From IMG/VR virus record IMGVR_UViG_3300037466_001520: DNA of 64,000 nucleotides; one strand, written 5' to 3'. Below are positions 40,754-61,512 of the stretch, piece by piece; position 1 is the first letter of the stretch; each line of letters starts with the position of its first letter. Below the pieces are notes generated by a model. That model made no database searches. It was not told where the DNA came from and saw only the letters and a program-made list of their open reading frames with translations. The DNA is from a virus. Lineage: Duplodnaviria; Heunggongvirae; Uroviricota; Caudoviricetes. A program made the position numbers and the translations under genes.

Positions 40754-40754
40754 C

Positions 40755-41380: not shown

Positions 41381-41417
41381 ATTGACAACTGTATATGCCA
41401 ACTCTTAGGATAGACAC

Positions 41418-43109
41418 ATGACAATCACTTACTCAGATCAGGATCGCCAAGACGCGACCGACTTCATGGCAGCGCTCCTCTCCTCGACCAAGAACGTCAA
41501 CAGCCGAAAGACGTTCAACGGCCAGAGCTTCAAGGACATCGCCCGCAGGGGGCTCCTCGCCATGGAGGAGGCGAAGATCGCCCCGCTCTTCCTCGCCGAC
41601 GCCTACAAGCTGGGCCACCGCGACCAGTACCCGGCTGGCATCACCAGTGTCTACTCGAACTTCACCAACCGGGGCTCCCGCATCGAGGGCGTCACCGACG
41701 TCGTCCACTTCGGCCTCCAGTACGCGCTCCAGAGGTACCTGACCGACATCTGGACCCCGTTCTTCGCCGCCGACGAGGACTCGGTCGCAGCCGCCTACGA
41801 GAAGCGCACGACCGAGATCCTCGGCCCGAACAGCATCGGCTCCCACCACATCCGCGCACTGCACCGCCTCGGCTACCTCCCGCTGCGCTTCTACGGTGCT
41901 CCGGAGGGGACGCTGATCCCGCTGCGCGTGCCGTCCTTCGCCTTCGAGAACACCCACCCGGACTTCTTCTGGCTGACCAACTACGTCGAGACGATCCTCT
42001 CGGCCTCGATCTGGCAGGCCTCCACCTCGGCGACCATCGCGCACCTGTACCGCAAGCTGCTCGACGTGGCCGCTGCCCGGACCTCCAGCACGCCCGAGGC
42101 CGTGGACTTCCAAGCCCACGACTTCTCCTTCCGGGGCATGTCCTCGCTGGAGTCCGCGCAGCTCTCCGGCGCGGCGCACCTCCTGTCCTTCAAGGGCACC
42201 GACACGCTCCCGGCGCTGAGCTGGATCGGCCAGTACTACCCGGGCGAGAACGGCTTCCTCGGGGGCTCCGTGCCCGCCACCGAGCACTCGGTGATGTGCG
42301 CGGGCATCGCGGAGATGGGCGAGCAGGACACCTTCGAGCGCCTGATGGACATCTACCCCTCCGGCATCGTCTCGATTGTCTCGGACACCGAGGACTTCTT
42401 CGCGGTCCTGACCAAGATCCTGCCCGCCCTCAAGGACAAGATCATGGCCCGCGACGGCAAGCTGGTCATCCGCCCCGACTCGGGCGACCCGGCAGACATC
42501 ATCTGCGGCAAGGCCAGCCGCTCGCTCACCACCGAGCGCCACCTCCGTGATGCGCTCCGGACCAACCCCTCGCTGGTGGACGAGTACCCGGAGGACTTCG
42601 GCGCTGTCGAGCTGCTCTGGAACCTCTTCGGCGGCACGGTCAACGACAAGGGCTTCAAGGAACTCGACCCGCACATCGGCCTGATCTACGGCGACTCGAT
42701 CACGCTTGAGCGCGCCGGGGACATCGCCACCCGCCTTGCGCGCAAGGGCTTCGCCTCGACCAACGTCGTCTTCGGCGTCGGCTCGTTCACCTACCAGTAC
42801 AACACCCGCGACACCTTCGGATCGGCGATCAAGGCGACTCAGGTCGTGGTCTACGGCGAGCCCCGGAACATCCAGAAGAACCCGAAGACCGACTCCGGGC
42901 TCAAGAAGTCCGCCACCGGTCGCCTCGCGGTCCTGCACAAGATGGACGGCATACCGTACCTGATCGAGAACGCCTCGAAGGTGCAGGAGGAGGCCTCGCT
43001 CCTCCAGCCGGTCTGGGAGAACGGGCGATTCCTCAAGCAGTACTCCTTCGCCGACGTCCGGGCGAACCTCGCCCGCACCGCAGCGATCCGGGAGCACGCC
43101 GGGGCATAG
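41418..43109 (+). CDS. Nampt-like nicotinamide ADPR-transferase (NARP1 Namat-like)
   Basis: 'DAYKLGH..QYP', 'HDFSFRG', 'GTDT', 'PATEHS', 'IRPDSGDP', 'IYGDSIT', 'FGVGS', 'TRDTFG...KAT', 'KKSATG'. Confidence 0.9.
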   Translation: MTITYSDQDRQDATDFMAALLSSTKNVNSRKTFNGQSFKDIARRGLLAMEEAKIAPLFLADAYKLGHRDQYPAGITSVYSNFTNRGSRIEGVTDVVHFGLQYALQRYLTDIWTPFFAADEDSVAAAYEKRTTEILGPNSIGSHHIRALHRLGYLPLRFYGAPEGTLIPLRVPSFAFENTHPDFFWLTNYVETILSASIWQASTSATIAHLYRKLLDVAAARTSSTPEAVDFQAHDFSFRGMSSLESAQLSGAAHLLSFKGTDTLPALSWIGQYYPGENGFLGGSVPATEHSVMCAGIAEMGEQDTFERLMDIYPSGIVSIVSDTEDFFAVLTKILPALKDKIMARDGKLVIRPDSGDPADIICGKASRSLTTERHLRDALRTNPSLVDEYPEDFGAVELLWNLFGGTVNDKGFKELDPHIGLIYGDSITLERAGDIATRLARKGFASTNVVFGVGSFTYQYNTRDTFGSAIKATQVVVYGEPRNIQKNPKTDSGLKKSATGRLAVLHKMDGIPYLIENASKVQEEASLLQPVWENGRFLKQYSFADVRANLARTAAIREHAGA

Positions 43110-43190
43110 CCTCCTAGGACTTCGAGTGGACAGCATATACAGAGTTTGATATGCTGTCCACATCGAAGTTCCAGACCAAAGGAGAGACCA

Positions 43191-43301
43191 ATGACCAAGA
43201 ACCTCAAGGACCAGCTCAAGCTCGGCGCAGCAGTCGTCGCGACGTCCCTCGCCGGGGCCTTCGCCTTCGACGTCCTGACCTACTGGGGGACGAACCGATG
43301 A
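43191..43301 (+). CDS. 36-aa membrane peptide, not in the ORF track
   Basis: AAAGGAGAG RBS; hydrophobic helix. Confidence 0.5.
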   Translation: MTKNLKDQLKLGAAVVATSLAGAFAFDVLTYWGTNR

Positions 43302-43426
43302 GACGCCGACCAATCCCGGTCTACATCGTCCCGGCACCGGGCAACGGCTGCGGCTGCTTCGCCTTAGCCTTCGTGATGATCGTGCTGGCCCTCACAGCGG
43401 TCCTCAACCTGTTCGGAGTACACTGA
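43298..43426 (+). CDS. small membrane protein ('GCGC')
   Basis: ATGA coupling; C-terminal TM. Confidence 0.5.
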   Translation: MRRRPIPVYIVPAPGNGCGCFALAFVMIVLALTAVLNLFGVH

Positions 43427-43429
43427 CGG

Positions 43430-44245
43430 ATGACACAGAACGTAGCGCTCAACCTGCACGGCGAGGTACTCTTCGCCGGGGACTGGCACGGCAGCTATCT
43501 CCAAGGCAAGCGCGCCATCGACCACGCGGCAGGGCAGGGCATCGCCACGGTCGTCCAGCTCGGCGACTTCGGGATCTGGGACAACGACAAGCCCTACCTG
43601 AACAAGCTGGACAAGCTGCTGCGCAGCCATAACATGATGCTCTTCTTCGTCGACGGCAATCACGAGGACTTCCCGAGGCTCTACGCCAAGCAGACCTTCG
43701 GGGTCGGCAGCCTCCGCCCGGTCAGAGATCACATCCACCACCTCCCGCGAGGGACCCGGGTCGACTGGGACGGCGTCTCCGTGCTGGCTATGGGCGGGGC
43801 GGCGAGCATCGACAAGAACCACCGACGCAAGGGCTACTCGTGGTGGGAGGAGGAGTTCATCACCCCGGAGCAGGCCGCTCACGCCATCGCCGGAGGACCC
43901 GCAGACATGATGTGGTGCCACGACTCCCCGGTCACCGCGCCGAACAGCGTCGTGGACGCCCCGAAGACCGGCTCCCGCCAGCTCGTCTTCCGTCCCGAGA
44001 TGGTTGCCTACAGCCTCTCCCACCGGGAGCGGCTGGCGGAGATCACCAACCAAGTGAAGCCCCGGATCCTGCTGCACGGCCACTACCACGCGCCGATGAG
44101 TGGGTACTACCGGCACGAGGGAGACCCCCGGGTCAACCTCATCCGTGGCCTCGACGAGGGCACGGCACCCGTGAGCGCCTCGACGCTCGCACTAACCCCA
44201 TCAAGTGTCAAAAGTCAAATTGAGACACTTGACACGATGCAGTAA
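43430..44245 (+). CDS. calcineurin-like metallophosphoesterase
   Basis: 'DWHG', 'GDFG', 'DGNHED', 'HD.P', 'HGHYH'. Confidence 0.85.
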   Translation: MTQNVALNLHGEVLFAGDWHGSYLQGKRAIDHAAGQGIATVVQLGDFGIWDNDKPYLNKLDKLLRSHNMMLFFVDGNHEDFPRLYAKQTFGVGSLRPVRDHIHHLPRGTRVDWDGVSVLAMGGAASIDKNHRRKGYSWWEEEFITPEQAAHAIAGGPADMMWCHDSPVTAPNSVVDAPKTGSRQLVFRPEMVAYSLSHRERLAEITNQVKPRILLHGHYHAPMSGYYRHEGDPRVNLIRGLDEGTAPVSASTLALTPSSVKSQIETLDTMQ

Positions 44246-44856: not shown

Positions 44857-45088
44857 CCCCATCCCCAACTACAGCCCACCGCCCGGAGCCGTAGAGCCCG
44901 GTCAGGGACAGGGAACCCTGACCGGCTGCGTGGCCTGCCTGCTCTCCGACGAGATCTACGCGCCCTCCGAGTTCGACATTGTGTATACCTACGACGGCTG
45001 TAGCTTCTGCGCGAAGCACGTGAAGCAGATCATTCAGTCCCAGTCGGAGCACAGGATCACCCTGCCGGGAGTGATCCTGCGTCCATAG
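44849..45088 (+). CDS. small Zn-binding protein
   Basis: TTG start; CVAC...CSFC..H. Confidence 0.5.
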   Translation: MPSPIPNYSPPPGAVEPGQGQGTLTGCVACLLSDEIYAPSEFDIVYTYDGCSFCAKHVKQIIQSQSEHRITLPGVILRP

Positions 45089-45146
45089 ACTGGACACTTT
45101 GTATGCTGTGGTAGAATTGCCGTGAAGACTTCCGGCAGGATTACCG

Positions 45147-46829
45147 ATGAGCATTTTCTTCCGCAACACGGCAGAGAACGAGGACGGCGACGTAGTTTCG
45201 GGCGGCGAATACACCGCCAAGAAGTACAGCGCCCCTCGTTCTCTGACCGCGTCTGCCGCTCGCGTCAACATCAAGGACAACCGCGAGACCGAGGCGTTCA
45301 AGAAGCGCCGCCAGACCGACAAGTGGCAGGAAGAGGCATTCGACTACCTCGACCTCATCGGCGAGATCAAATTTTCCTCGAACATCATCGCGAATGTCAT
45401 CTCGCGCGTGAACCTCTACGCGGGGTACGTCGCGGACCCGTCTCAGGTCCCGGCCCGCATCGGCTCCATCGACCACCTAGAGGACGAGTACAAGGAGAAG
45501 GCCGACTCCGCGCTGTTCCTGCTCGAATCCAGCACCGGGGGCATGTCCGGGCTGCTGCGCAAGGCCGCTGAGAACCTCTTCACGACCGGCGAGTGCTACC
45601 TCGTGCGCGAGCCCGCCAAGCTCTCCATCGGCGAGCCGGAGAAGTGGCAAATCCGCTCCGTGGCCGAGCTGATCGCGATCACCAACCCGAACAAGCGCCC
45701 CGGCTCCCCGGCCAACCTCTATGCGATCAAGCCGCGCCGCGACTCCGAGCCCAAGGACTACACCGTCCTGCCGGAGAACTCCTTCATCGCGCGCATGTGG
45801 CGTCCGCACCCCCGCTACTCGGACGAGGCGGACTCGTCGATGCGCGGCATCCTCGACCTCTGCAACGACCTCCTGCTCATCACCCGAAACGCCTCGGGCG
45901 TGGCGAAGTCCCGCCTCAACAACGGCCTGCTCTTCCTGCCCGAGGGCCTCGCCATGGAGGCCGGAGCGCCGGACGACATGGACCTCGACGTCACCGAGGC
46001 TCAGGTGAACACCGACACCCTCGAAGAGGACATCCTCGACGCCTTCATCGAGCCGATCTCCGACCCGCAGTCCGCCTCCTCGGTCGCGCCGTTCATCATC
46101 CGTGGCCCCTCCGAACTCGGCGCTGCGATCAAGCACATCGAGTTCTCCCGCACCTTCGACCCGGCGCTCGCCAAGCAGGCCGACAAGCTGCTGGAGCGCA
46201 TCATCTCCGGCCTCGACCTGCCCAAGGAGATCGTCGGCGGGATGAGCACGCTCCGTGGGGCGAACGCGAAGATCGTCGAGGAGACGATGTTCTCCTCGCA
46301 CATCGAGCCGCTCGTGCTGCTGATCTGCGACATGATCACCATCGCCTTCCTGCGCCCGGTGCTGCGCTCCCTCGGCTACCCGGACCACATCGTCGCCCGC
46401 ACGGTCGTCTGGTACGACCCGAGCGCCGTCACCTCGCGCCCGTCCAAGGCCGAGTCCGCCACGCAGGGCTACGACAAGAACATCATCTCCGCAGACGCAT
46501 GGCGTCGTGCCCACGGCTTCGGCGTCGGCGATGCCCCGACCCAGCTTGAGATCGCCCAGAAGCTCGCCGTCGCCAAGGGCCTCATCTCCGAGCCGCTGGC
46601 CGAGAAGCTCATCGCCACGCTCCTGCCGGACCTCATGGGCGACCTCCGCAAGGAGCAGCTCCAGCAGTCCGACCCGAACTCGGCGAGCGCGCTCAACGAG
46701 GCCCTCGGAGAGCAGCCGGGTCCGGGAGACGAGGCACCTCAGGAGCCGACTCAAGATACAAAGAGTCAAGGCGACAGTGGTACAATTGACGATGAGAACA
46801 CCCCACCCGATCACCTGATGGAGCCGTAA
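45147..46829 (+). CDS. portal protein
   Basis: 560 aa at the head of the structural module; 'WQEEAFDYLDLIGEIKF..N..ANVISRVNLYAG'. Confidence 0.7.
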   Translation: MSIFFRNTAENEDGDVVSGGEYTAKKYSAPRSLTASAARVNIKDNRETEAFKKRRQTDKWQEEAFDYLDLIGEIKFSSNIIANVISRVNLYAGYVADPSQVPARIGSIDHLEDEYKEKADSALFLLESSTGGMSGLLRKAAENLFTTGECYLVREPAKLSIGEPEKWQIRSVAELIAITNPNKRPGSPANLYAIKPRRDSEPKDYTVLPENSFIARMWRPHPRYSDEADSSMRGILDLCNDLLLITRNASGVAKSRLNNGLLFLPEGLAMEAGAPDDMDLDVTEAQVNTDTLEEDILDAFIEPISDPQSASSVAPFIIRGPSELGAAIKHIEFSRTFDPALAKQADKLLERIISGLDLPKEIVGGMSTLRGANAKIVEETMFSSHIEPLVLLICDMITIAFLRPVLRSLGYPDHIVARTVVWYDPSAVTSRPSKAESATQGYDKNIISADAWRRAHGFGVGDAPTQLEIAQKLAVAKGLISEPLAEKLIATLLPDLMGDLRKEQLQQSDPNSASALNEALGEQPGPGDEAPQEPTQDTKSQGDSGTIDDENTPPDHLMEP

Positions 46830-46833
46830 AGAC

Positions 46834-49800
46834 ATGGCCGTTGACCGTCACGAACTCGTCAAGCACCAGCTACGCGATAGCCACGGTCGATGGATCAAAA
46901 TGGGCTTCAAGGTCAAGTGGCACGACTACTCCGGTGACCACACCGGAACGGTCGTGGACATCGACACCGACTCCCACACCGGCATGCCCAAGGCCATCGT
47001 GCGCGAGTACGACCACCACGGCCACGACATGGGCCACCAGAAGGAGATCCCGGGCCTCCAGCTCACGGTCATCCCGGCCAAGGCCGTCCTCAAGTACGAC
47101 GAGCACGGCAACCTCGAAGGCGTCGACGAGCACGCACCGCACGTGGGCCACGCACCGCTGATGCACTTGGCCTCGGAGCCGAACAAGGGCTACATCACGC
47201 TCGACGCCAAGGGCCACAACCCCATGACGGAGACCGCCAAGGACCACGGACACACCCAGAGCCTCAAGGACGCCAAGGTCGGCGACCAGCTCTACCCGGT
47301 GCACTGGAGCGAGTCCAACGGCACCTCGCCCTACAACCTCACCCAGCACAAGGTCCACCCCAAGCTCTCCACCAAGGACGGAGCTGGCGTCGGCACGGTC
47401 ATCAAGAACGACCCAGCCAAGGGATACATCGTCGTTAAGCACCCGGACGGCTCCACCAGCGCGCCCTCGAAGAATCACTTCGGCGTCTTCCGCAACGCCA
47501 GCGCCGACACGGCCCTGATGAAGGCACACAAGAAGGCCGTCGACGAGGGCCACCACTTCCACGTCGGCCACAAGGGCGAGTGGATCCCCGAGCTTGCCAA
47601 GGACCACCCGGACCACGACACGCACGAGGAGCCGAAGGCACCGGAGCCGGTCCAGCACGTCGAAGAGCACCCGGTAGCGCCGAACCACGAGCCCGACCAC
47701 CACATCACCGCAGAGCAGTCCAAGGCCACCGGCCTGATCACCGTCCAGTCCTCGGACCACACGGACATCACCACCCCCGTCTCGGACCTCAAGGTCGGGG
47801 ACCAGCTCTACCCCCGCCACGCGATGGACACCTTCGGACAGAACCCCTACGCCTCGACCGGGGCGATGGGCATGAACAAGGTCCGCGTGGAGCCGCTCTC
47901 CCACTTCGGCCTCGGCACCGTCTCCAAGGTCGACCCGGCCAAGGGCGAGGTCAAGGTCAAGACCGCCAACGGCAGCACCTACACGCTCAAGTTCGACCGC
48001 AACGTCTTCAAGCGCACCCCCGAGCACGACAAGACGCTCTCGGACTCCTTCGAGGGCTACAAGAGCACCATCCCGTCTTCGATGCGCTGGATGGAGGGAC
48101 TCGCCGGGGCCAAGGAGGTCGCGCCGGAGAACAAGTCCAACGAGCACGACGCCAACATCCTCAAGTACGACGGGACCACCCTCGACCAACTCCCGAAGGA
48201 GGCCGTGAAGGAACTCCCGGTCGGGACCAAGATCACCCAAGCGAACACTGGCGGGAAGTACTGGCAGAAGGACGCCCCCAACCAGTGGAACAAGTACCAC
48301 CAGACCGGGGTCAAGCTCTCCTCCTTCGCCATCCCGGACAGCAACATCGAGTCCTCCATCGGATCTTCCTCGGCGAAGAACGAGAAGATCTCCATCCCGC
48401 AGCCCGGACCGGAGCACCACGCAGACGCGCATGCCCCCGAGGAGCACGCACCGGCTGCTGAGGCCCCGCACGTCGAGTCGCACGCCGAGGCGGAGCACAC
48501 CGCAGAGGTCGCCGACCACCCGATGAGCATCGAGGGCTGGCAGAAGATCGCTGGCAAGTCCGGGTCCAACCCGGGAGGGGTCTACAAGGACCCGTCCGGC
48601 AAGGAGTGGATGGTCAAGTTCCCGCAGACCTCCGACCACGCCCGCAACGAAGTCCTCGCCGCAAACCTGACCAAGCTCGGTGGCATCGAGGCCACCGACA
48701 TGCAGCTCATCGACGCCGGGAACGGCAAGCTCGGCGTGGCCGCTCCGATGGTCAAGATCAAGAGCGACCTCAAGCACCAAGTCGACACCAACCCGGAGTT
48801 CAAGCACAAGGTGCAGGACGGCTTCGCCGTGGACGCATGGCTGGCGAACTGGGACACTGTCGGGCTCGACTTCGACAACATCGTCTCGGACGAGAACGGC
48901 AACCCGCTCCGCGTCGACCCGGGAGGCTCGCTCCTGTACCGCGCCATGGGCGCACCCAAGGGCAACGCCTTCGGGAACTCCGTTGGCGAGTGGGACACGC
49001 TCCGCAACGGCTCCAACTGGCAGACCGCGCACGTCTTCGGCGACATGACCGACCAGCAGCTCATCGACTCGGCCAAGCACGTCGAGGCCATCTCCCCTGA
49101 GGAGATCGCCAAGCAGGTCGACGCCATGGGCTTCGACGAGGCCAAGACCAAGGAACTCAAGGACAAGCTCATCGCCCGCCGCGAGGACATCATCGCCCGC
49201 GCCGCAGCGCTCAAGCCTGCCGAGGAGCAGCACGCCCCCGAGCCAGCGCACGAGGAGCCCGTCCACGCACCGGCAGCGCAGGAGCCCCAGCACGAAGAGG
49301 CCCCTGCGCCGACCGAGCCTGCCCACGCCCCCGCAGAGGAGCCGAAGGCAGAAGCCCCTGCCGGGGACCACCAGCCAGCCCCCGAGCAGCACGAGGTTCA
49401 GAAGGAGGAAGCCCCAGCTTCGTCCTCCGAGTCCTCCTCGCACGCCGGGGACCCTTTCGCGAGCCACCAGTTCATCGACAAGGGCAAGACCACCACTGAC
49501 TCCAACGGGGATACCCTCAAGGTCGGCGACCTAATCAACCACAAGAGCGGAAAGCACGGCACCGGAAAGGTTCTCAAGGTTCTCCCGTCGACCGAGTCGG
49601 TCCACGTCGTCTACCCAGATGGCACCGAGGCCAAGCACCAAGGGCACACGGTCACCAAGGTCAACGAGCACGTCGAGCCGAAGGCCGCTGAGGAGCTCCC
49701 CAAGCTCGCACCGGGCGAGTACCACCACGACTCCGCCACCGGAAAGAGCTACATCGGCGCGAAGGACGGAACTCCTCTCGCTGTCGGCGACCGCGTCACC

Positions 49801-52800
49801 TACACCAAGCAGGGGCAGACCAAGGCCGGGAAGATCAAGGCCATCTACAAGGGCGACAACGCCGTTGCGATCACGTGGGACGACGGCTCGACCTCGGGCA
49901 CTAAGAAGAAGGCCTCCGCGATCCTCAAGGAAGAGGCCCCCAAGTCCGAGGAGCCCAAGGCCGAGGAGCACGCTCCGTCCGCAGAGGCACCGAACGAGGA
50001 GCCCAAGGCTGAGGACCACGCCCCTGCCGAGGAGGCTCCGTCCGAGCCTGCCCACGAGGAGGCACCCAAGGCCGAAGAGCCTGCCCACGAGGAGCCGAAG
50101 GCAGAGGAGCCAGCAGCTCCCGCCGAGGGGACCCTGCTCAAGGATCTCACCGACGAGCAGGTACTCAACGCACCTGTTGGGTCCAAGCTCAACCCGACCG
50201 GACCCGGCAACCACACCCTCACGAAGCAGGCGGACGGACTCTGGCACAGCCCGACAGGGGCCACCTTCGAGGGCCACCAGCTCAACGTCGGCAAGAACCA
50301 CTCCTCCGGCGACAAGTACGCCTTCGAGCCCGCCAAGGCCGGTGAGCACGCTCCTGAGTCGACCGCCCCCGAGGAGCACGCTCCGGCAGCAGAAGAGCCT
50401 AAGGCCGAGGGCCACATTCTCTCCGAGTACGACAACAACGAAATCAAGGCCCTCGCCAAGGGGACCGAGATCGTCGGACCGCAGGGGCAGAAGTTCGTCA
50501 AGGTCGGTCACGACGCATGGCAGGCGTACCTGCCTGACGGCTCCGTTGCTGGGGACGAGTCCCACACGTTCAACGACGCCGTCATCGGCGTGCTCGCGCA
50601 CCACGAAGACGGCAACGGAATGGCACAGGAGTGGACCGTCCACGAGCCTAACGGCGAGCACGCCCCCGAGACACCTCACGAGGGCTCTCAGGAGCCTGCC
50701 GGAGGCTCCGAGGATTGGAAGGTCGGCACCGAGTCCAACGGGGCCAGCCTCAAGGCTGAGCAGGCTCCTGTCGGCACGGAGATGTCTTCCGTGGGCTGGG
50801 GCCAGACCCTCATCAAGGTCGGTCCGAACCAGTGGCAGAACGTCTGGCCTGACGGCGACGTCGAGCCCGGATATCGCGAGGACCACGAAGTCCAGCAGAT
50901 TCTTGACATGCCTACCGAGAACTGGAAGGTCAACTCTCTCAACGCATCGGAGAAGACCGACGACGGGCACGCGGAGAACTCCGTCATGCCTCCGCACATC
51001 GTCAACCCGGACAACTTCGGACCCGGCTACCACTACAACACCGCCAGCGCTGGCACCTTCCTGAACGCCGACGATGGCGAGGCCATCGAGGTCAAGAACA
51101 AGGCCGACAACTCATTCGTCGGAACCTTCGTCAAGGATGATCAGGGCGGCTGGGATCACTACGGCAAGACCGGCGACTACGAGGGCAAGGTCTCGGCCAA
51201 CGATCTCGTTGACCAGTATGGCAACGGCGACCACTCCGTCGTCTCCTACCTCGCCACCAACGGCTACCAAGGCCCGAACACCGGACAGGAGTCCGCTCCG
51301 GGGCACGCCGAGATGCCGCACGCTCCGAACGAGGGCGGACAGCCGCCTGCCAGCTCGCTCAGCCCGCTCGTCGGGATGAAGGTCTCGAACATCGAGGGCT
51401 TTGACCCGAACGCACTCCCGCACGGGACCAAGCTCGTCAACGGTCAGGGTCAGGCCATGATCAAGACCTCCGCTGGCTGGAAGCTCCACGCCCCGGGCAC
51501 CGACGAGCACAACGAGACCATCACCAAGGGCCTCGGCAACTCCATGCTCCAAGGCGAGGGCGGAGAGGACTGGACCGTCGCTGGACTCGGCACCGGAGAG
51601 GACTTCCTCGCCCAGCCGCAGATCGGCGGCGCTGACCTCAAGGGCTACGAGGGCAAGCGCCTCTTCGAGATGCCCCCGGTCAACCTCGCCAGCGCGCTCC
51701 CGGGGACCGTCTTCTCCAAGGACGACGGCTCGATCAAGTACACCAAGCTCGGGGACAACGTCTGGCAGGTCTCCGGGCAGGACTGGACCCACTCCGAGAC
51801 GTGGTCCGATCAGGCGGTCAAGGACGTCCTCTACAACCAGACGGACGGGACGATCAACCACCAGCTCACCAGCGCCGGGGAGATCCCGACCGAGGGCGAC
51901 AACGCCGAGAGCCTGTCCAACCACACGGAGGACTCCTTCAAGAACCTGCCCAAGGGAACCCAGATCACCTACACCGGGATCAACGGCAACAAGGGCACCT
52001 ACACGAAGATGACCGACGCGGGCAAGTGGGAGTTCACCGGGGCCGGGTACTCCCTGCCGTCCTCGCAGACGATCACCAACGACGAGTTCCAGCACATCCT
52101 AGGGACCGACAAGGGCAAGGACTACAAGGTCACCCCGCCCAAGCCGGAGGAGCCTGCCGTCCCCGAGGCACCTCAGGTCGAGGACCCATATCACAAGAGC
52201 GGCTTCAAGCCGGACGCGGAGTACTACAAGACGCTCCCAGCCGGGACCACGATCCGCCGCGAGATCTCCTACCTCACCGGGCAGCACTACTACTCGGTGA
52301 AGCAGGAGGACGGCTCGTGGACGATCATGAAGAAGACCCCGTCCACGCTCAAGGTCTACAAGGAGAACGTCACCTCCGACGAACTGCCCTACGCGATGTA
52401 TACGAGCGGCTACAACAGCACCGTCTCGATCTCGATCCCGAAGGGCACCGACGAGCACTTCACCACCGGAACCGGTGAGATCGGCTACGTCGGCGACACC
52501 GTCATCCACGACGGGCAGGCCTACAAGGTTCTCAAGATCAACAAGACGGGCCTCAAGCTCCAAGCAGAGGACGGCAGCGCCCCGATCACGGTCAAGCCCG
52601 CCAAGCTCGCCATGGACGAGGAGTACGGCAAGAAGAAGTACACCGAGTCCCAGAGCACGCACACGTTCGTCATGGATCCGATCAGCAGCTCCTTCGACCA
52701 GCACCTCCAGAAGCAGGCCGAGGAGAACAAGCTCAAGAACTTCGCCGGAGCGGACGCGAGCGAATACGACGCTCAGGGCCTCGCCATGCCACACGACGCG

Positions 52801-54720
52801 AACCCGAGCTTCGACAACGGCATCAAGGCCTACGACGCCGGACCCGTCGACACGACCAACCCGCTCTACGGTGCGGAGAAGCCCACCGAGCCGACCCTTG
52901 AGCTTCCCGACATGCAGCTCCCGTCCAAGTGGGACAGTGCCGCATGGCTGGATGCCGTCAAGCAGCGCTACCTTGAGAACCCGAACAAGGCCAAGGACTC
53001 GCTGGAGCAGTCGAACAAGTGGAGCACCGTCCAAGACGTCGTCACCAACGGCAACAAGGACGCGCTCAAGAAGCTCCTCGACTCCCAGTACGTGGACCAG
53101 AACCTCTACGACGACGCGCTGACCAAGATCGACGCTGGCAACGCCCAGTACGAGGCCGAGAAGGCGAAGTACGAGGACGCCGTCAAGGCCGCGACCGAGA
53201 AGTACAACGCCGATAAGGCGCAGTACGACTCCGAGCTTGAGGCGTGGCAGAAGGCCAACCCTTCGGCCATCGACCAGCCGTACGTGGCCGCTGTCCTGCC
53301 GTCCGTCTCGACCGAGAACTTCACCGGGCAGCAGGCGGACTGGACCAAGGCACACATCGGGACCCACACCGCTGCCACGGTCATGTCCGCGATCAAGGAC
53401 GACAACGTCCTCGGCAAGCACGGCCTATCCTTCGCGGTCGACTCTGACCAGATCGAGCACCTCGACGTCAAGACCACCAAGGTTCTCAACACCCAAGGAG
53501 ATCAGGTCTTCGAGTTCAAGTTCAAGGTCACCGGACCGCACGGCGACGTCATCGAGCAGCAGCTCAAGGACCGAGGCGTGTCCACGGAGACCGGCGCATG
53601 GCTTAACAAGATGGTGCACGACGATGCGACCGGCCTGCTCAAGGACACCGGGACGGTCATGAAGTCCACACACACCGGAACCCGCTACAGCTACAAGGAC
53701 GCGGAGACCGGGGCTAACGTCATCTTCCAGAAGTCGAGCGCCGGGTATGACGAGCTGAACAAGTCGAACTACAACAACACCGTCCGCATCCACATGCCGC
53801 TCGGTTCGACTCCCGAGGATTTCCAGAAGACTATCGCAAATCTCGGCATCACCAACGCCCGCCCGTCGAGCGAGGGAGACATCCGCGTCTTCGCCGAGAA
53901 CCAGCTCATCTCCATGTTCGGACGAAATGCCCACGGCATCACCACCTACGACCCGAACCACAACCACTCGGGAGAGGCCCGCAAGAAGCAGCTCGCGGAC
54001 ATCGCCGAGAGGTACGGCCTGACCCCGGACGACCTCACCTTCAAGACCGAGGTCAACGGGCGAGTCCGCTTCGAGGTCTCCGACGCGAAGGCTCAGGCGC
54101 TCGCGGAGAAGTACCACGTGAACTTCCTCCAGCACCACGTCTCCGGAGGAACCGAGCACGACACGTGGCTGAACATCCTCGCTGGCGACACCCCGGGCCT
54201 CCTCTCGACCTACCACCGCTGGTCGGAGGGCATCGACAAGGAGGGCGCGTCCTCGGGGGCCGACATCAGGAACGGCGCGGGAGACTACGTCTACCTGACC
54301 CCACAGGGCTCCTTCAACATCGACGAGGCGGCGAAGTACGGGCCGAAGGTCATCGTCAAGCCGTCCGGACTGTTCAAGCGACTCGACTACTGGGCGAACG
54401 TCAGTGATAGCTGGGGCCTCCGAGGGGGTGGGAAGGGCTCGTCCACGACGACGGTCGGTGACCTCTTCGACAAGAACACGAGCCACAACAACCTCGGCAT
54501 CTACGAAGTCCTGCCCAAGGACACCGTCCCGATCAAGGACTTCTCCCACGTCGTGATGCCGAAGGAGGGCTCGTACGGGGTACCGGAAGGATTCCGTCAG
54601 GGGCTCATCGACAAGCTCAAGGCCAAGGGCATCTACGCGATCAACGGGATCCCGGTCGAGGACTTCATCCAGCCCTACTCGGGCGGGACGGTCCCGACGA
54701 ACCTGACCGAGTGGAGTTAA
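46834..54720 (+). CDS. 2628-aa polyvalent virion-associated protein (atypical kinase, Tudor/KOW and LPxGT repeats, C-terminal ART-like domain)
   Basis: follows portal; kinase motifs about 48540-49200; DarT/OspC-like motifs about 54110-54600. Confidence 0.75.
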   Translation: MAVDRHELVKHQLRDSHGRWIKMGFKVKWHDYSGDHTGTVVDIDTDSHTGMPKAIVREYDHHGHDMGHQKEIPGLQLTVIPAKAVLKYDEHGNLEGVDEHAPHVGHAPLMHLASEPNKGYITLDAKGHNPMTETAKDHGHTQSLKDAKVGDQLYPVHWSESNGTSPYNLTQHKVHPKLSTKDGAGVGTVIKNDPAKGYIVVKHPDGSTSAPSKNHFGVFRNASADTALMKAHKKAVDEGHHFHVGHKGEWIPELAKDHPDHDTHEEPKAPEPVQHVEEHPVAPNHEPDHHITAEQSKATGLITVQSSDHTDITTPVSDLKVGDQLYPRHAMDTFGQNPYASTGAMGMNKVRVEPLSHFGLGTVSKVDPAKGEVKVKTANGSTYTLKFDRNVFKRTPEHDKTLSDSFEGYKSTIPSSMRWMEGLAGAKEVAPENKSNEHDANILKYDGTTLDQLPKEAVKELPVGTKITQANTGGKYWQKDAPNQWNKYHQTGVKLSSFAIPDSNIESSIGSSSAKNEKISIPQPGPEHHADAHAPEEHAPAAEAPHVESHAEAEHTAEVADHPMSIEGWQKIAGKSGSNPGGVYKDPSGKEWMVKFPQTSDHARNEVLAANLTKLGGIEATDMQLIDAGNGKLGVAAPMVKIKSDLKHQVDTNPEFKHKVQDGFAVDAWLANWDTVGLDFDNIVSDENGNPLRVDPGGSLLYRAMGAPKGNAFGNSVGEWDTLRNGSNWQTAHVFGDMTDQQLIDSAKHVEAISPEEIAKQVDAMGFDEAKTKELKDKLIARREDIIARAAALKPAEEQHAPEPAHEEPVHAPAAQEPQHEEAPAPTEPAHAPAEEPKAEAPAGDHQPAPEQHEVQKEEAPASSSESSSHAGDPFASHQFIDKGKTTTDSNGDTLKVGDLINHKSGKHGTGKVLKVLPSTESVHVVYPDGTEAKHQGHTVTKVNEHVEPKAAEELPKLAPGEYHHDSATGKSYIGAKDGTPLAVGDRVTYTKQGQTKAGKIKAIYKGDNAVAITWDDGSTSGTKKKASAILKEEAPKSEEPKAEEHAPSAEAPNEEPKAEDHAPAEEAPSEPAHEEAPKAEEPAHEEPKAEEPAAPAEGTLLKDLTDEQVLNAPVGSKLNPTGPGNHTLTKQADGLWHSPTGATFEGHQLNVGKNHSSGDKYAFEPAKAGEHAPESTAPEEHAPAAEEPKAEGHILSEYDNNEIKALAKGTEIVGPQGQKFVKVGHDAWQAYLPDGSVAGDESHTFNDAVIGVLAHHEDGNGMAQEWTVHEPNGEHAPETPHEGSQEPAGGSEDWKVGTESNGASLKAEQAPVGTEMSSVGWGQTLIKVGPNQWQNVWPDGDVEPGYREDHEVQQILDMPTENWKVNSLNASEKTDDGHAENSVMPPHIVNPDNFGPGYHYNTASAGTFLNADDGEAIEVKNKADNSFVGTFVKDDQGGWDHYGKTGDYEGKVSANDLVDQYGNGDHSVVSYLATNGYQGPNTGQESAPGHAEMPHAPNEGGQPPASSLSPLVGMKVSNIEGFDPNALPHGTKLVNGQGQAMIKTSAGWKLHAPGTDEHNETITKGLGNSMLQGEGGEDWTVAGLGTGEDFLAQPQIGGADLKGYEGKRLFEMPPVNLASALPGTVFSKDDGSIKYTKLGDNVWQVSGQDWTHSETWSDQAVKDVLYNQTDGTINHQLTSAGEIPTEGDNAESLSNHTEDSFKNLPKGTQITYTGINGNKGTYTKMTDAGKWEFTGAGYSLPSSQTITNDEFQHILGTDKGKDYKVTPPKPEEPAVPEAPQVEDPYHKSGFKPDAEYYKTLPAGTTIRREISYLTGQHYYSVKQEDGSWTIMKKTPSTLKVYKENVTSDELPYAMYTSGYNSTVSISIPKGTDEHFTTGTGEIGYVGDTVIHDGQAYKVLKINKTGLKLQAEDGSAPITVKPAKLAMDEEYGKKKYTESQSTHTFVMDPISSSFDQHLQKQAEENKLKNFAGADASEYDAQGLAMPHDANPSFDNGIKAYDAGPVDTTNPLYGAEKPTEPTLELPDMQLPSKWDSAAWLDAVKQRYLENPNKAKDSLEQSNKWSTVQDVVTNGNKDALKKLLDSQYVDQNLYDDALTKIDAGNAQYEAEKAKYEDAVKAATEKYNADKAQYDSELEAWQKANPSAIDQPYVAAVLPSVSTENFTGQQADWTKAHIGTHTAATVMSAIKDDNVLGKHGLSFAVDSDQIEHLDVKTTKVLNTQGDQVFEFKFKVTGPHGDVIEQQLKDRGVSTETGAWLNKMVHDDATGLLKDTGTVMKSTHTGTRYSYKDAETGANVIFQKSSAGYDELNKSNYNNTVRIHMPLGSTPEDFQKTIANLGITNARPSSEGDIRVFAENQLISMFGRNAHGITTYDPNHNHSGEARKKQLADIAERYGLTPDDLTFKTEVNGRVRFEVSDAKAQALAEKYHVNFLQHHVSGGTEHDTWLNILAGDTPGLLSTYHRWSEGIDKEGASSGADIRNGAGDYVYLTPQGSFNIDEAAKYGPKVIVKPSGLFKRLDYWANVSDSWGLRGGGKGSSTTTVGDLFDKNTSHNNLGIYEVLPKDTVPIKDFSHVVMPKEGSYGVPEGFRQGLIDKLKAKGIYAINGIPVEDFIQPYSGGTVPTNLTEWS

Positions 54721-54738
54721 GGATGGTATATTAGGAAG

Positions 54739-55365
54739 ATGGACCCTAATACCTACAACATCATCGCCAGTTTCGCAAACTCCGACACTCCGCTCCGCGA
54801 GGACCACAACGGAGTGATCGGGGTTGCGAGGCTACAGGCTGAGCCAGACGGCTATGCCGTGATCTACGACAACAACCGGGCCTTCAATGTCACCGGGTAC
54901 AACGTATCCGCTTCCGACGACTCGATCAAGTTCTACAAGGACGAGTCGTACTTCGAGCTGAGCCCATTGACACTGGAGACCCCGCAAGAGGTGTGGCCCG
55001 GGGCCACACGCACCTTCCCAACACTAGACCACGTCGAGGAAATGGCCGTGACCGCAATCAAGAACGCCGACAGCTACGCCCCCAACACCGAGGATCCGGA
55101 GACGCTATACTTCTCCCTCGACGACAAGGGCAACGTCCTCGAACTCACCAAGGACACCGCTGACGGCGACATGTTCTACTGGGAAAACGGCGACTGGCAA
55201 CCGGTGACGGCTGACGGCGACTACCCGACGATCTACGACCGCCCGCTCCTTGAGGTGGCCCGCGACGACAACGGACTCGCCATCCAGTTCTGGACGAAGG
55301 TGCAGGAGAACGGCCAGAGCGCGACCAAGGACGACGTCACGCGCTTCGCCAAGCTCTACCAGTAG
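54739..55365 (+). CDS. hypothetical protein, probably structural
   Basis: position in head module. Confidence 0.65.
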   Translation: MDPNTYNIIASFANSDTPLREDHNGVIGVARLQAEPDGYAVIYDNNRAFNVTGYNVSASDDSIKFYKDESYFELSPLTLETPQEVWPGATRTFPTLDHVEEMAVTAIKNADSYAPNTEDPETLYFSLDDKGNVLELTKDTADGDMFYWENGDWQPVTADGDYPTIYDRPLLEVARDDNGLAIQFWTKVQENGQSATKDDVTRFAKLYQ

Positions 55366-55434
55366 GCTTGCGCCCGGGTATTCGACACTGTATGCTATAA
55401 TGGGCGAGTATGATATCTGCTCGTTAGGGTCTAC

Positions 55435-57453: not shown

Positions 57454-57459
57454 AACAGT

Positions 57460-59145
57460 ATGAAGATTCCACCTCGCCTTGATGAGGCTGTCTACGCTGG
57501 CATTGACATCCAAGAGCGCATGATCCGCCTCGCGGTCGAGGCCGCGCAGAGCTTCGAGGACTTCTACGGGGACGACGGGCGCACCCCGCTCACCGCCTCC
57601 GGCGTCTCGGAGACCGGCTCCCGCTTCCGCATCCCGCTCGTGGCACCCTTCGAGCACGACTCCGGCGACAACCGCCACTTCGCCGAGGGCGCGCTGACGC
57701 ACGTCCCTCTGCCTATGCCCCTGCTCTGGCAGGAGAAGACAGCACCCGGCCACGACGGATCCGTGATCGTCGGGCGCATCGACGGAATCGTCATCGACGA
57801 GGTCGGAGCCCGCGATGCCGTGGGCGTCTTCGACATCGGCCCATGGGCTCGCGAGGCAGAGCGCCTTGCGCGAAACGGCTTCCTCCGCCACGTCTCGGTC
57901 GACCTCGACCAGTTCGAGGGCGAAACCCCTAACCCACACTACTTCAACGGTGAGGATGCTGTCAAGAACAGCCCCACGGTCAAGATCGACAACAAGCCGA
58001 TCAAGATCAACAAGGCGCGCATCAACGCTGTAACCCTTGTCGCCAAGCCTGCCTTCCAAGAGGCGTTCTTGGTCCTTGACGCGGAGCCCACTTTGGAGAA
58101 CGGCGACGACAGCGTAGCCGATGGAATCTACGAGGAGACACCAATGGATCTCGACAGCGAGCTAGCAGCGCTCGCCGCATCGGCAGCGCCGCTCATCCCT
58201 CCGCGTGATTGGTTCGCCAATCCGCACCTTACACAGGCAACCCCGCTCACGATCACCGACGAGGGCCGCGTCTTCGGCCACATCGCCGCGTGGGCGACTT
58301 CCCACATCGGCCTCCCGCGCGCGACCAAGCCGCCGCGCTCGGCGTCGAACTACGCCTACTTCCGCACGGGCGTGCTCCGCACCGACGACGGCACTGACGT
58401 CTCGGTCGGCCAGCTCACCCTCGCCGGAGGGCACGCGCCTCTGCACGCCTCCGCTCAGGCGGCAGCGAAGCACTACGACGACACCAACTCCGCCGTCGCC
58501 GACGTCACCGCAGGCGAGGACCAGTTCGGCATCTGGGTCTCGGGTGCGCTCCGCCCGGACATCACCCCGTCTCAGGTCCGTGCGTTCCGAGCCTCGGCAC
58601 CGTCCGGAGACTGGCGTCCGATCAACGGTCGCCTCGAACTCGTCGCGGTCTGTGCCGTGAACGTCCCGGGCTTCCCGATTGCCCGCGCCATGGTCGCAGG
58701 CGGGCAGATCACCGCGCTCGTCGCAGCCGGTGCGTCCGCCATCGCCGAACTCCAGCAGAACAAGCTGGACGACCTCGTCGAGCGCGTCCGCGTCATCGAG
58801 CACGCCGAGTTCTCCTCTCAGGCAGAGGAGGCGCGCGCCCTCATGGAGGCGTCCTTCGCAGCCGTCACTGCTCGCCGCGAGGCGGAGCAGGAGTCGCTCG
58901 TCGCAGCAGCCAACGAGGCACGCGCCCTCATGGCGGCATTCAAGCCCCACTGGGGCGAGGATCAGGGCGGCGAGAACGACATCGACAGCACCGAGGGAGA
59001 CAGCGTCCCTGTGAACGACCCGTCCGACTCTGACGGCGACTTCGCTGGCGAGGACTCGCACGTGAACGAGCTGGACGACGCGGAGCAGGACGTCGCGTCT
59101 TTCAGCAGCCTCGCGGACATCCGCAAGGCCATCTACGGCCAGTAG
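57460..59145 (+). CDS. capsid maturation protease
   Basis: 'SGDNR.F..GAL...LPMPLLWQ....GHDGSVIVGRID' plus 'HYDDT...ADV..GED..GIWV.G...PSGDWR' domain. Confidence 0.7.
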   Translation: MKIPPRLDEAVYAGIDIQERMIRLAVEAAQSFEDFYGDDGRTPLTASGVSETGSRFRIPLVAPFEHDSGDNRHFAEGALTHVPLPMPLLWQEKTAPGHDGSVIVGRIDGIVIDEVGARDAVGVFDIGPWAREAERLARNGFLRHVSVDLDQFEGETPNPHYFNGEDAVKNSPTVKIDNKPIKINKARINAVTLVAKPAFQEAFLVLDAEPTLENGDDSVADGIYEETPMDLDSELAALAASAAPLIPPRDWFANPHLTQATPLTITDEGRVFGHIAAWATSHIGLPRATKPPRSASNYAYFRTGVLRTDDGTDVSVGQLTLAGGHAPLHASAQAAAKHYDDTNSAVADVTAGEDQFGIWVSGALRPDITPSQVRAFRASAPSGDWRPINGRLELVAVCAVNVPGFPIARAMVAGGQITALVAAGASAIAELQQNKLDDLVERVRVIEHAEFSSQAEEARALMEASFAAVTARREAEQESLVAAANEARALMAAFKPHWGEDQGGENDIDSTEGDSVPVNDPSDSDGDFAGEDSHVNELDDAEQDVASFSSLADIRKAIYGQ

Positions 59146-59316
59146 ACACTGTGTAGGGTAGCCGGGAGACCGGCTACCCACCACACACACGTCAAAATTC
59201 CCATGATATACTGGTTACAACTTAAGCGCAAGATCTAGGATCTTGTCCCTTCTGCCGAATGACGAACCAGCCCTAGGTAGACACTGTCTACCGCGAGAAA
59301 AATTAGAGGAGGGACT

Positions 59317-61512
59317 GTGGATCAGATCAATGCAAACCTCGACCGGATTTCCGAGCTTTCGGACGACGAGCTTAAGTCGCTTGAGGGTTCTATCGTGTCA
59401 GAGTTTGAGGCGGTCCAGACACAGGACTTGACTCCCGATGTAGTTGAGAGCATGAAGGCTCTCGCCCGTGCCGCTGTTGCGGTTCGCACCGAGGTTCAGA
59501 CCCGCGAGGCTCAGGCCAAGCAGCTTGCAATGGAAGCTGCGGAGGCTGCTGAGGCCATCAAGGGAATCGACCCCGACCAAGACGGTGACGTCGACAACGT
59601 CATCGACACTGACGGAGATGCGGACGCTGTAGGCGACGGAGACGGGGATGGCTCAGGAGACGCGGACACCGTGTCGGAAGCCATCGAAGGCATCGCGGAC
59701 GTCGACAACGACGATGTGGCCTCGGATGCGGCCCCATCGGAAGACACCAACACCGACAGCAGCGAAGCGGCACCTGCCGACGCAGCAGACATGGCGGACG
59801 AGGCCCCGGCCCCGAGCACCGACGCCGACCCAGCTCCGGCAGCGCCGGACACAGAGACTCCTTCTTCGGACGAAGATCCCGCACAGGGCGGGACGGACAC
59901 TCCGGAGCAGGGCGACCTCTCGGACGAAGACGAGAAGAAGATCGCGAACTTCGACGCAGCAGCCCCGGCTGATGCAACCGACGAGGCCGACGCAGCCCCC
60001 GCAGCGGATGACGCCAGCGAGGCAGCAGCCGCAGCTCCGGCAGACGGAGACAACACGCCAGCCGAGGCTCCCGCAGCCGACGAGGCAGCCGAAATGTCCG
60101 ACAACGGCCCGGACGAAGACCCAGAACCCGCACCATCCGACTCGGCTGATGAAGACGCCGAGGACAAGGACAAGAAGAACAACTCGGAGGACCCCGTGAC
60201 TGCCTCAGTTACAACCGAACTCGATAACATCGAGGTTCAGGCTCCCGCTGACCACGCACCTGTCGTCGCGTCGGCGGCTGTCGAGGAGACCATCTCCTAC
60301 GCGCCTGTTACCATCACCGCTGGAGCCGACATTCCGGGCGTCACTGCCGGAACCGAGCTTCCCAACCTTCGCTCCGTTGCCGAGGCGATCATCAAGCGTA
60401 AGAACGCTATGGGTCGCACCTCCGGTGGAGACGGCGAGCACCACCAAGTCGCGCAGTTCGCGACTTCCTTCCCTGAGGAGCGTACCCTCAACCCTTCGGA
60501 CATCGAAGGCAACCGCGCCAAGATCGAGGGAACTGTTGACTCCCTTATCGCTGCCGGTGGTATCGCCGCTCCTGCTGAGGTCCGCTACGAGCTTTACGGC
60601 CTCGGCGAGGACGTCCGCCCTGTCAAGGACTCGCTCCCTGTCTTCGGCGCTGACCGTGGCGGTATCCGCTACATCACTCCTCCGGTCCTCACCGACCTCA
60701 ACGGAGCTGTCTCGCTCTGGACCCTCGATGACGACGTCGCTGCTGCGACTGGCTCCTCGCCCGTCAAGCCTGCGCTCCGCGTTGCGGCTGGCGCTGAGGT
60801 CGTCGTTCAGGTCGACGCGATCCCGCTCATCCTCACCTTCGGTAACATGGGTGCTCGCGCCTACCCCGAACTCGTCGAGCGTCACACAAAGCTCGGGATG
60901 ATTCAGCACGCTCGCTTCGCCGAGACTCGCATCCTCACCCGCATCGGCTCGCTCTCGACAGCGGTCACCGCTGCCAAGGCTCTCGGTGCTGCTCGTGACA
61001 TCTTCGTTCAGGTCGAGACCGCTGCGGCTGCGTACCGCAACCGTCACCGCATGGACGAGTCCACCCCGCTCCGCGCCATCTTCCCGGCTTGGTTCAAGAA
61101 CGCGCTCCGCGCTGACCTCACCAAGCAGCTCCCGGGAGACGGACCGGACGAGACCTTCGGTCTCGCCGAGGCGACCATCAACAACTGGTTCAACCTCCGT
61201 GGCATCAACGTCACGTGGACCGTTGATGGCGAGACCGGCCAGATCTTCGGCGCTCAGGGTGCAGGAGCCCTCAACGGCTTCCCGACCGAGCTTATCTGGT
61301 ACCTCTTCTCCGAGGGCACCTTCCTCTTCCTCGATCAGGGCACGCTCGACCTCGGCATCGTCCGCGACTCGACCCTCAACCAGACCAACGACTACAAGAT
61401 CTTCTTCGAGACCTTTGAGGCCGTTGCGAAGGTTGGTATCGAGTCCCTCAAGGTCACAAGCGAGCTTGCAATCGCTGGTGCTACTGCCGGAACCGTCGCG
61501 CCCGTCATCTAA
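59317..61512 (+). CDS. major capsid protein with long acidic N-terminal scaffold-like region
   Basis: position after the protease; T/C-ending codon bias of a highly expressed gene; conserved C-terminal about 400 aa. Confidence 0.75.
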   Translation: MDQINANLDRISELSDDELKSLEGSIVSEFEAVQTQDLTPDVVESMKALARAAVAVRTEVQTREAQAKQLAMEAAEAAEAIKGIDPDQDGDVDNVIDTDGDADAVGDGDGDGSGDADTVSEAIEGIADVDNDDVASDAAPSEDTNTDSSEAAPADAADMADEAPAPSTDADPAPAAPDTETPSSDEDPAQGGTDTPEQGDLSDEDEKKIANFDAAAPADATDEADAAPAADDASEAAAAAPADGDNTPAEAPAADEAAEMSDNGPDEDPEPAPSDSADEDAEDKDKKNNSEDPVTASVTTELDNIEVQAPADHAPVVASAAVEETISYAPVTITAGADIPGVTAGTELPNLRSVAEAIIKRKNAMGRTSGGDGEHHQVAQFATSFPEERTLNPSDIEGNRAKIEGTVDSLIAAGGIAAPAEVRYELYGLGEDVRPVKDSLPVFGADRGGIRYITPPVLTDLNGAVSLWTLDDDVAAATGSSPVKPALRVAAGAEVVVQVDAIPLILTFGNMGARAYPELVERHTKLGMIQHARFAETRILTRIGSLSTAVTAAKALGAARDIFVQVETAAAAYRNRHRMDESTPLRAIFPAWFKNALRADLTKQLPGDGPDETFGLAEATINNWFNLRGINVTWTVDGETGQIFGAQGAGALNGFPTELIWYLFSEGTFLFLDQGTLDLGIVRDSTLNQTNDYKIFFETFEAVAKVGIESLKVTSELAIAGATAGTVAPVI

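Follow-up and report, generated by a model that had tools for sequence, protein, structure and literature searches.

A giant phage head-module protein with a modeled HipA/CtkA-like kinase and a modeled DarT/OspC-like ADP-ribosyltransferase fold

The 64,000-nucleotide stretch of Caudoviricetes DNA analyzed here (the window; IMG/VR record IMGVR_UViG_3300037466_001520) raises the question of what function a protein of 2,628 amino acids (aa), designated P0001, fulfills within the head module of a phage genome. Its open reading frame (ORF) lies, as the preliminary description had it, directly between portal and head genes, with a portal protein gene (phrog_776) upstream and a head protein gene (phrog_777) downstream (Table 1). 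That description, which was made from the sequence alone, proposed a packaged and ejected dual effector combining an atypical kinase with an ADP-ribosyltransferase (ART). On the evidence detailed below, we regard it as fairly probable that P0001 is a polyvalent head-module protein, most likely packaged and released together with the DNA, which carries an active kinase and a DarT-like ART.

The motifs on which the proposal of a kinase was based are all in place, namely, GSNPGG (aa 577 to 582), VKF with K595, RNEV with N605/E606, the catalytic-loop NWD (48847-48855), and RVDPGG with D695, where E606 represents the helix-C Glu of the kinase pattern. A word-indexed search with aa 545 to 815 retrieved more than 520 homologous proteins, and an alignment of 74 kinase-domain copies revealed as invariant or nearly so the residues G-S-N-P-G-G, K595, N605-E606, D-A-W-L-x-N-W-D674, D681-N682, and R693-x-D695-x-G-G, followed by LLYRAQGxPKG. 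K595, E606, D674, N682, and D695 were retained in 86 to 87 of 87 giant relatives, and the motif set is far beyond what chance would produce. The AlphaFold2 model computed on this alignment (predicted local distance difference test [pLDDT], 94.7; predicted TM-score [pTM], 0.90) displays a bilobal atypical kinase fold, for which Foldseek returned Helicobacter pylori CtkA as the top match in the PDB (E value, 1e-7), followed by LepB, PI4KIIIbeta, and Vps34 and, lower in the ranking, by actin-fragmin kinase and HipT. VIA-align, in turn, aligned the model with CtkA at a Z score of 17.7 over 219 residues (root mean square deviation [rmsd], 3.1), and with CotH, HipT/HipA, PI4KIIalpha, LepB, and actin-fragmin kinase at Z scores of 14.8, 12.8, 12.6, 11.3, and 10.9, respectively. 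The expectation that aa 570 to 790 would model as an atypical kinase of the HipA/CtkA/PI4K/actin-fragmin group was borne out, and the domain (aa 560 to 806) is predicted to belong to the HipA/CtkA branch of atypical kinases and to be intact, all catalytic residues being present.

Sequence-based resources leave this domain without a name. It carries no assignment in Pfam, NCBIfam, or PHROGs, the HipA_C profile (PF07804) scoring 15.2 bits against a Pfam cutoff of 30.5, and sequence and profile searches of PDB chains gave no significant match; among the 74 aligned family members, sub-threshold matches to HipA_C and HipA_2 (PF20613) were seen in 41 and 9 cases, respectively. An identification of aa 565 to 779 as an ART, suggested by the annotations of phage homologs, was rejected, as the PF03496 domain is located elsewhere in those proteins. 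Many homologs (P0002, P0003, P0004, P0010, and others) harbor two or three tandem copies of the kinase domain.

The C-terminal part of P0001 was analyzed by an exhaustive HMMER search with aa 2140 to 2628 (clusters at 50% identity), which detected the module in 335 cluster representatives; nearly all of these proteins are 2,000 to 7,000 residues long and are matched at their C terminus or close to it. AlphaFold2, applied to an alignment of 71 relatives of this module (approximately 30% identity overall), produced a two-part model (pLDDT, 92.0; pTM, 0.93). The first half contains an alpha+beta domain (aa 2182 to 2345) whose resemblance to TBP/START, at a Z score of at most 6.9, is not diagnostic, and this identity was not adopted. 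For the second half (aa 2409 to 2620), a Foldseek-independent comparison against 48,161 PDB chains ranked Escherichia coli DarT1 (8baq) first (Z score, 7.9 over 163 residues, covering positions 1 to 198 of 208), with the DarT proteins of Thermosipho, Mycobacterium tuberculosis, and Thermus at Z scores of 7.4, 6.8, and 6.8; further ARTs retrieved were OspC3 (5.7), SopF (5.7), CopC (5.2), and Tpt1 (5.1).

Comparable outputs were obtained elsewhere. DarT and OspC3 formed the top rows of the Foldseek search of the PDB, the best eight Swiss-Prot models were OspC1 to OspC4, CopC, and a DarT-DarG fusion, and the ESM Atlas yielded a cluster with 83% PF14487 members (185 residues; rmsd, 3.7; TM-score, 0.71 when normalized by the matched entry). 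A feature-based comparison with the protein Atlas pointed to an OspC cluster (0.90) and a DarT/PARP cluster (0.88), values which serve as leads only. Because four libraries agree on the superfamily, and on DarT especially, even where single scores are middling, aa 2409 to 2620 is modeled as an ART fold with a split beta-sheet core, its best matches being DarT and OspC/CopC, as had been anticipated for the C-terminal region. Pfam, NCBIfam, and PHROGs leave the domain without assignment; P0001 as a whole has a weak PHROGs match of unknown function alone and none in NCBIfam, and an ART of the PF03496 type (ADPrib_exo_Tox) is absent from it.

The string QHHVS..WLNIL.G..PGLLST..R..GAGDYVYL..GIYEVL, from which a DarT/OspC-like transferase was originally read, is present, and the Glu codon then singled out corresponds to E2558. 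This residue, together with R2462, S2473, D2477, D2525, and G2528, was retained in all 71 aligned relatives, and the two aromatic positions within GAGDYVY were retained in 64 (Y/F2485) and 71 (F/Y2487) of them. In the model, H2434 closes a strand and is followed by WLNILxG...GLLST, and E2558 opens a later strand (YEVL); on the basis of what is known of the fold, rather than of a superposition, we take the modeled strands to be beta1, beta3, and beta5 of an ART. The combination of H2434, the aromatic residue at 2485/2487, and E2558 is predicted to represent the H-[Y/F]-E class pattern. The catalytic residues of DarT1 are R52, together with D54, and E152 (PMC11543638); R2462, followed by E2465, may be the counterpart of DarT R51/R52 and D54.

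Both domains were detected in 71 of the 81 C-terminal-module relatives of at least 2,000 aa and in 38 of the 40 that reach at least 3,000 aa. This phage is not alone in encoding the proposed dual effector: a large family, mostly of metagenomic origin, has the kinase-ART pair as its conserved core. The closest relative, P0122 (3,594 aa), shares 58% identity in the C-terminal module and additionally harbors a Nudix domain and a PF03496 ART, both of which are missing in P0001; its contig displays the order Macro, phosphoribosyltransferase, Nampt, metallophosphoesterase, helix-turn-helix (HTH) protein, portal, giant gene, and capsid gene. The relatives P0133 and P0176 exhibit the same head-module gene order, and P0133 also carries a separate PF03496 ART. 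When the whole of P0001 was searched by tblastn, the C-terminal module was found in one deposited phage only, the metagenome-assembled Actinomycetia phage DSL-LC01, and an IMG/VR scan for the module confirmed nothing; the alignment of its 71 relatives was too diverse for a pattern scan.

The company kept by the kinase domain was tallied for the best 120 of its more than 520 matches. Within these, PF03496 ARTs (45), Nudix (46), MuF (16), and WGR (12) domains were fusion partners, alongside PF01129, 2H, topoisomerase IB, portal-related PF06381, and Phage_min_cap2 (PF06152), and approximately 90 of the 120 carried at least one NAD+- or ADP-ribose-related domain. The contexts inspected were phage or prophage, and the domain occurs in phages of both Actinobacteria and Proteobacteria.

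Several observations weigh against the assignment of P0001 as a packaged, enzymatically active effector. The DarT profile PF14487 has no match in P0001 and was detected in a single one of the 71 relatives at an E value of 0.057, the OspC profile PF06128 has none in P0001 or in any of the 71, and a profile search of PDB sequences with the C-terminal module found no ART or DarT. The leading Z score of 7.9 falls in a range which the structure-comparison tool calls middling, and an ART fold may also serve an NAD+ glycohydrolase. The separate PF03496 ART of relatives may indicate that the C-terminal module is not "the" transferase, its constant location at or near the C terminus is also compatible with a role in assembly, and Pfam detects neither MuF (PF04233) nor Phage_min_cap2 nor any other recognized capsid-anchoring domain in P0001.

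Some of these points would also suit a protein whose chief role is as a structural or internal-core part of the capsid or of the ejection apparatus. The conserved C-terminal 450 to 900 aa would then serve assembly by binding the portal or capsid, the ART-like fold would be inactive or an NAD-sensing relic, and activity on the host would be confined to the kinase or be missing altogether. Such a role would accommodate the separate canonical ART of relatives, the ending of the C-terminal module within approximately 35 residues of the C terminus in most of them, the conservation reaching upstream to approximately aa 1700 in closer relatives, and the slot between portal and protease genes, in which minor head proteins are encoded. 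It is nonetheless considered quite unlikely, as the retention of H2434, the aromatic residue at 2485/2487, E2558, R2462, S2473, and D2477 in 69 to 71 of 71 relatives, at approximately 30% identity, is a pattern typical of enzymes.

A second alternative, which we hold to be unlikely, is that P0001 is not packaged and acts late in the cytoplasm, its place in the head module reflecting late timing only; it might, for example, act on the DNA of phage or host, on the machinery of packaging, or against NAD+/ADP-ribose-based defenses. P0001 has no MuF or portal fusion, kinase-domain genes are found among non-structural genes in other phages, and NAD+ salvage genes are located immediately upstream, all of which speak for this explanation. 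It is opposed by the arrangement of the locus itself. Translation of the giant gene is coupled to that of the portal gene: its ATG (46834) is situated 4 nucleotides (nt) beyond the portal stop codon TAA (46827-46829), with GGAG, a candidate ribosome-binding site, approximately 10 nt 5' of it, and the frame runs to a stop codon at 54718-54720. The order of portal, giant gene, and capsid gene was, moreover, seen in five loci, other phages carry this kinase domain in fusion with MuF, Phage_min_cap2, or the portal-related PF06381, and published reasoning on ARTs encoded beside portal genes supports packaging (PMC9503650).

The favored reading, that of a packaged dual effector, is not without precedent, as head-packaged ARTs and polyvalent proteins have both been described (PMC5512222, PMC9503650). 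P0001 resembles the polyvalent proteins of Iyer et al. 2017 (PMC5512222) in its very long chain, its several effector-type enzyme domains, and its location beside portal and head genes, and its possession of at least two effector-type domains in a virion-gene context places it among them. ARTs are the commonest protein-modifying cargo of such proteins, for which packaging and injection are predicted (PMC5512222). The kinase reported there belongs, however, to another lineage, being of the Ser/Thr/Tyr type with its C-terminal subdomain lost and occurring in the Verrucomicrobia-Chlamydia group and Bacteroidetes, and the words HipA, DarT, OspC, and WGR are absent from that publication. According to literature cited in PMC9503650, T4 Alt is an ART shown to be packaged and injected. 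T4 Alt and the MuF-fused ARTs (EFV toxin, PMC5576092; Bxa, PMC11699363) are, like P0001, made with head proteins; in contrast to it, they are of the PF03496 type, comprise a few hundred to approximately 1,000 residues, and have no kinase described, whereas the P0001 transferase is predicted to be DarT-like, of the H-[Y/F]-E class, and lacks MuF.

The individual modules can likewise be set against their nearest known counterparts. DarT (DarT1 of E. coli C7 and DarT2 of Thermus, Thermosipho, and M. tuberculosis) is the best structural match of aa 2409 to 2620. In both, the first core strand is followed by a His and the second by an Arg, and a catalytic Glu (predicted in P0001) comes close to the end. 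Unlike DarT, the P0001 transferase domain is not part of a toxin-antitoxin pair, family scans of the window revealing neither a Macro nor a NADAR antitoxin partner among its neighbors, and it is positioned at the C terminus of a 2,628-aa protein with an extra alpha+beta domain before it. The closest relative encodes a Macro-domain protein (L004:3338-3817) among its NAD+ salvage genes, and tblastn finds no homolog of this protein in the window, though the DarT-like transferase is kept.

The OspC3/CopC arginine ADP-riboxanases are the top Swiss-Prot matches (E values, 2e-3 to 1e-2; probability, 0.82 to 0.94), with PDB Z scores of 5.2 to 5.7 and an alignment that extends into the helices preceding the ART core. 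Their TM-scores against P0001 are low (0.23), P0001 lacks ankyrin repeats, and the calmodulin dependence of OspC/CopC would be senseless in a bacterial host. CtkA (H. pylori jhp0940) and HipA/HipT represent the closest fold of aa 560 to 806, and their Gly-rich loop, Lys, Glu, Asp...Asn, and metal-binding Asp are all found in P0001. In contrast to these proteins, the P0001 kinase is located in phage head-module proteins and is not a toxin of a toxin-antitoxin system, and its family displays signatures of its own in the WLANWD catalytic loop and the conserved LLYRAQGxPKG segment.

Under the favored explanation, P0001 would be made alongside the portal and capsid proteins, built into the procapsid, perhaps via its N-terminal part, and carried into the host cell with the phage DNA, its two enzymes being borne along an extended array of small repeat modules connected by flexible linkers. 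The Ser/Thr-type kinase (K595, E606, D674, N682, and D695) would then move a phosphate from ATP to a host target, most likely a protein, and the ART (H2434, R2462, and E2558) would move ADP-ribose from NAD+ to host DNA or protein. Protein is the better guess for the kinase target because the nearest relatives of the domain, CtkA, CotH, and HipA/HipT, are protein kinases; DNA and protein are alike as candidate targets of the transferase because DarT and OspC match it about equally well.

It is also possible, though rather unlikely, that both domains, instead of modifying proteins, act in a single NAD+/ADP-ribose pathway directed at nucleic acids or nucleotides. ADP-ribosylation of DNA or RNA would then fall to the DarT-like domain, and phosphorylation of a small molecule or of a derivative of ADP-ribose to the domain with the kinase fold. 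The protein kinases found closest to the kinase model argue against such a pathway, as does the observation that OspC/CopC, which are protein-arginine modifiers by their Swiss-Prot names, roughly equal DarT as matches of the transferase in one library. In its favor, DarT provides the closest fold and DarT enzymes modify bases of single-stranded DNA (PMC11543638), and the kinase domain is accompanied mostly by ART, Nudix, WGR, and 2H domains, all of which handle NAD+ or ADP-ribose. An obligate two-step writer, whereby the ART, as the genome enters, would attach ADP-ribose to a DNA base or a protein of host or phage and the kinase would then phosphorylate this adduct or the same target, is very improbable in our estimate. 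If true, it would account for the near-exclusive association of the kinase family with ART, Nudix, and WGR domains; the resulting mark would resist removal by Macro, NADAR, or ARH erasers of the host, and a new composite macromolecular modification would be delivered from the capsid.

Head-packaged ARTs are regarded as a strategy that phages deploy in the first line, and ARTs in polyvalent proteins associated with phage heads are already known. In the literature examined, no description of a kinase-ART pair in phage proteins was found, nor any mention of HipA/CtkA-, DarT-, or OspC-like modules in polyvalent or head-packaged phage proteins. The conserved enzyme pair at the core of this family has no assignment in Pfam, NCBIfam, or PHROGs, and phage proteins in which the kinase domain is fused to ART, Nudix, WGR, or MuF domains are at present labeled in databases only as "ADP-ribosyltransferase" or "NUDIX hydrolase." Naming both modules would immediately improve phage annotation. 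The kinase domain is also carried by cultured relatives, namely, Pseudomonas phages Jeremy and Dolphis and Gordonia phages Sixama and Forza, the latter two encoding it in the corresponding slot (gp73 and gp78, respectively); whether a kinase is delivered jointly with an ART directed at DNA or protein is therefore directly testable.

Table 1. Features of P0001 and of the surrounding head module, with positions in the window
Feature	Coordinates	Strand	Basis
Giant ORF P0001, 2,628 aa	46834..54720	+	ORF list and translation; no internal stop
HipA/CtkA-like atypical kinase domain (predicted), aa 560-806	48511..49251	+	Model (pLDDT 94.7) and structural matches
Gly-rich loop GSNPGG, aa 577-582	48562..48579	+	G577 kept in 84/87, G581 in 81/87
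K595, predicted ATP-binding lysine (VKF)	48616..48618	+	Kept in 86/87
Catalytic loop N672-W-D674 ... D681-N682	48847..48879	+	D674 and N682 kept in 87/87; N682 invariant in the 74-copy alignment
D695 of RVDPGG, DFG-equivalent metal-binding Asp	48916..48918	+	Kept in 86/87
Alpha+beta domain, aa 2182-2345, first half of C-terminal module	53377..53868	+	Model; weak TBP/START-like resemblance
DarT/OspC-like ART-fold domain (predicted), aa 2409-2620	54058..54693	+	Model and structure libraries
H2434, predicted NAD+-binding His, end of modeled strand aa 2431-2435	54133..54135	+	Kept in 69/71; model residues 292-296
R2462, invariant Arg after second core strand	54217..54219	+	Kept in 71/71
E2558, predicted catalytic Glu, opens core strand	54505..54507	+	Kept in 71/71; model residues 419-423
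N-terminal region, aa 1-280	46834..47673	+	BLASTP to P0122 aa 1-261 and Arthrobacter phage Mimi gp77 aa 10-225
Pair of small modules, aa 873-1031	49450..49926	+	Common to relatives including Mimi gp77
Central repeated modules of ~90-100 aa, LPxGT...W motif, Pro/Ala/Glu/His-rich linkers (aa ~1100-1900)	50131..52533	+	Motif scan
Segment aa 2038-2142, common to Microbacterium phage minor-capsid/VIP2-ART fusions	52945..53259	+	39% identity, E 2e-14
Nampt (NAD+ salvage), conserved 5' neighbor	41418..43109	+	phrog_448, E 6e-188; PF04095
Portal protein gene	45147..46829	+	phrog_776, E 1e-87
208-aa ORF, conserved 3' neighbor, without family	54739..55365	+	Family scans, synteny
561-aa head-module protein	57460..59145	+	phrog_859 and phrog_18402 (head maturation protease/portal profiles)
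Major head protein	59317..61512	+	phrog_777

Outside the two enzyme domains, the N-terminal region (aa 1 to 280) is a candidate capsid-targeting part. Its counterpart in Arthrobacter phage Mimi, gp77 (L005:4455-12584; 2,709 aa; annotated as "DNA helicase"), occupies the same slot after the portal gene and is devoid of kinase and ART, and the two proteins have in common only the N-terminal approximately 200 aa and one pair of small modules. Because gp77, with other cargo, shares this N terminus and these modules, the comparison of sequences suggests that phages of this lineage combine a constant targeting part with enzyme cargo that can be exchanged. The LPxGT...W motif occurs in seven copies across the central repeats, for which Pfam, PHROGs, and NCBIfam gave no family match, with an eighth copy at aa 461. 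The counterpart of the segment at aa 2038 to 2142 is found at aa 738 to 836 of gp5 of Microbacterium phage FireCastle, a protein with Phage_min_cap2 and a VIP2-type ART, directly before the ART, such that this "pre-ART" module precedes two unrelated ART classes; a feature-based protein Atlas comparison with aa 1880 to 2160 gave nothing usable.

On the 5' side of P0001, a Prs-like phosphoribosyltransferase, a SLOG/YAcAr protein, Nampt, a metallophosphoesterase, an HTH protein, and the portal protein are encoded, the block from the Prs-like gene to the metallophosphoesterase gene (39468-44245) being located immediately upstream of the portal gene. This gene content is in agreement with the earlier suggestion that the phage rebuilds NAD+. 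Nampt holds the same position in two relatives (L004 and L008) and in phage Mimi. The giant protein of Mimi contains no ART, and the link between the NAD+ genes and the transferase is therefore not a fixed one.

On the 3' side, the 208-aa ORF is followed by a 672-aa ORF, the second gene after P0001, and then by the 561-aa ORF. The match of the latter to phrog_859 ("portal protein") covers positions 363 to 787 of 807, and it also matches a head maturation protease profile; its product is probably a protease or scaffold, with relatives that form fusions with the portal protein in other phages. The major head protein comprises 731 aa and, because its relatives align only from approximately aa 294 onward, is considered to carry a fast-diverging N-terminal extension of approximately 290 aa (59317-60195; aa 1 to 293), which may be a scaffold or delta domain fused to it.

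With the major capsid protein of Arthrobacter phages Mimi, Racecar, and Atuin, the capsid protein shares 64% identity, and with those of other large actinobacteriophages 45 to 51%, a Microbacterium phage matching at 45.7%; the host is, therefore, most likely an actinobacterium, and the phage is a soil phage related to the Arthrobacter phage Mimi group. Megablast of positions 45000 to 60000 against 50,697 phage records returned no match, and the GC content of the window is high, at about 0.60 to 0.66. No RNA data set is listed among the sequencing runs with this DNA. Contigs of two soil/rhizosphere metagenome runs cover positions 46000 to 56000 without any difference, and partial contigs from two further metagenome runs are identical to the same sequence. 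One of these runs is possibly the source of the window; even so, the ORF of P0001 is not an isolated assembly artifact.

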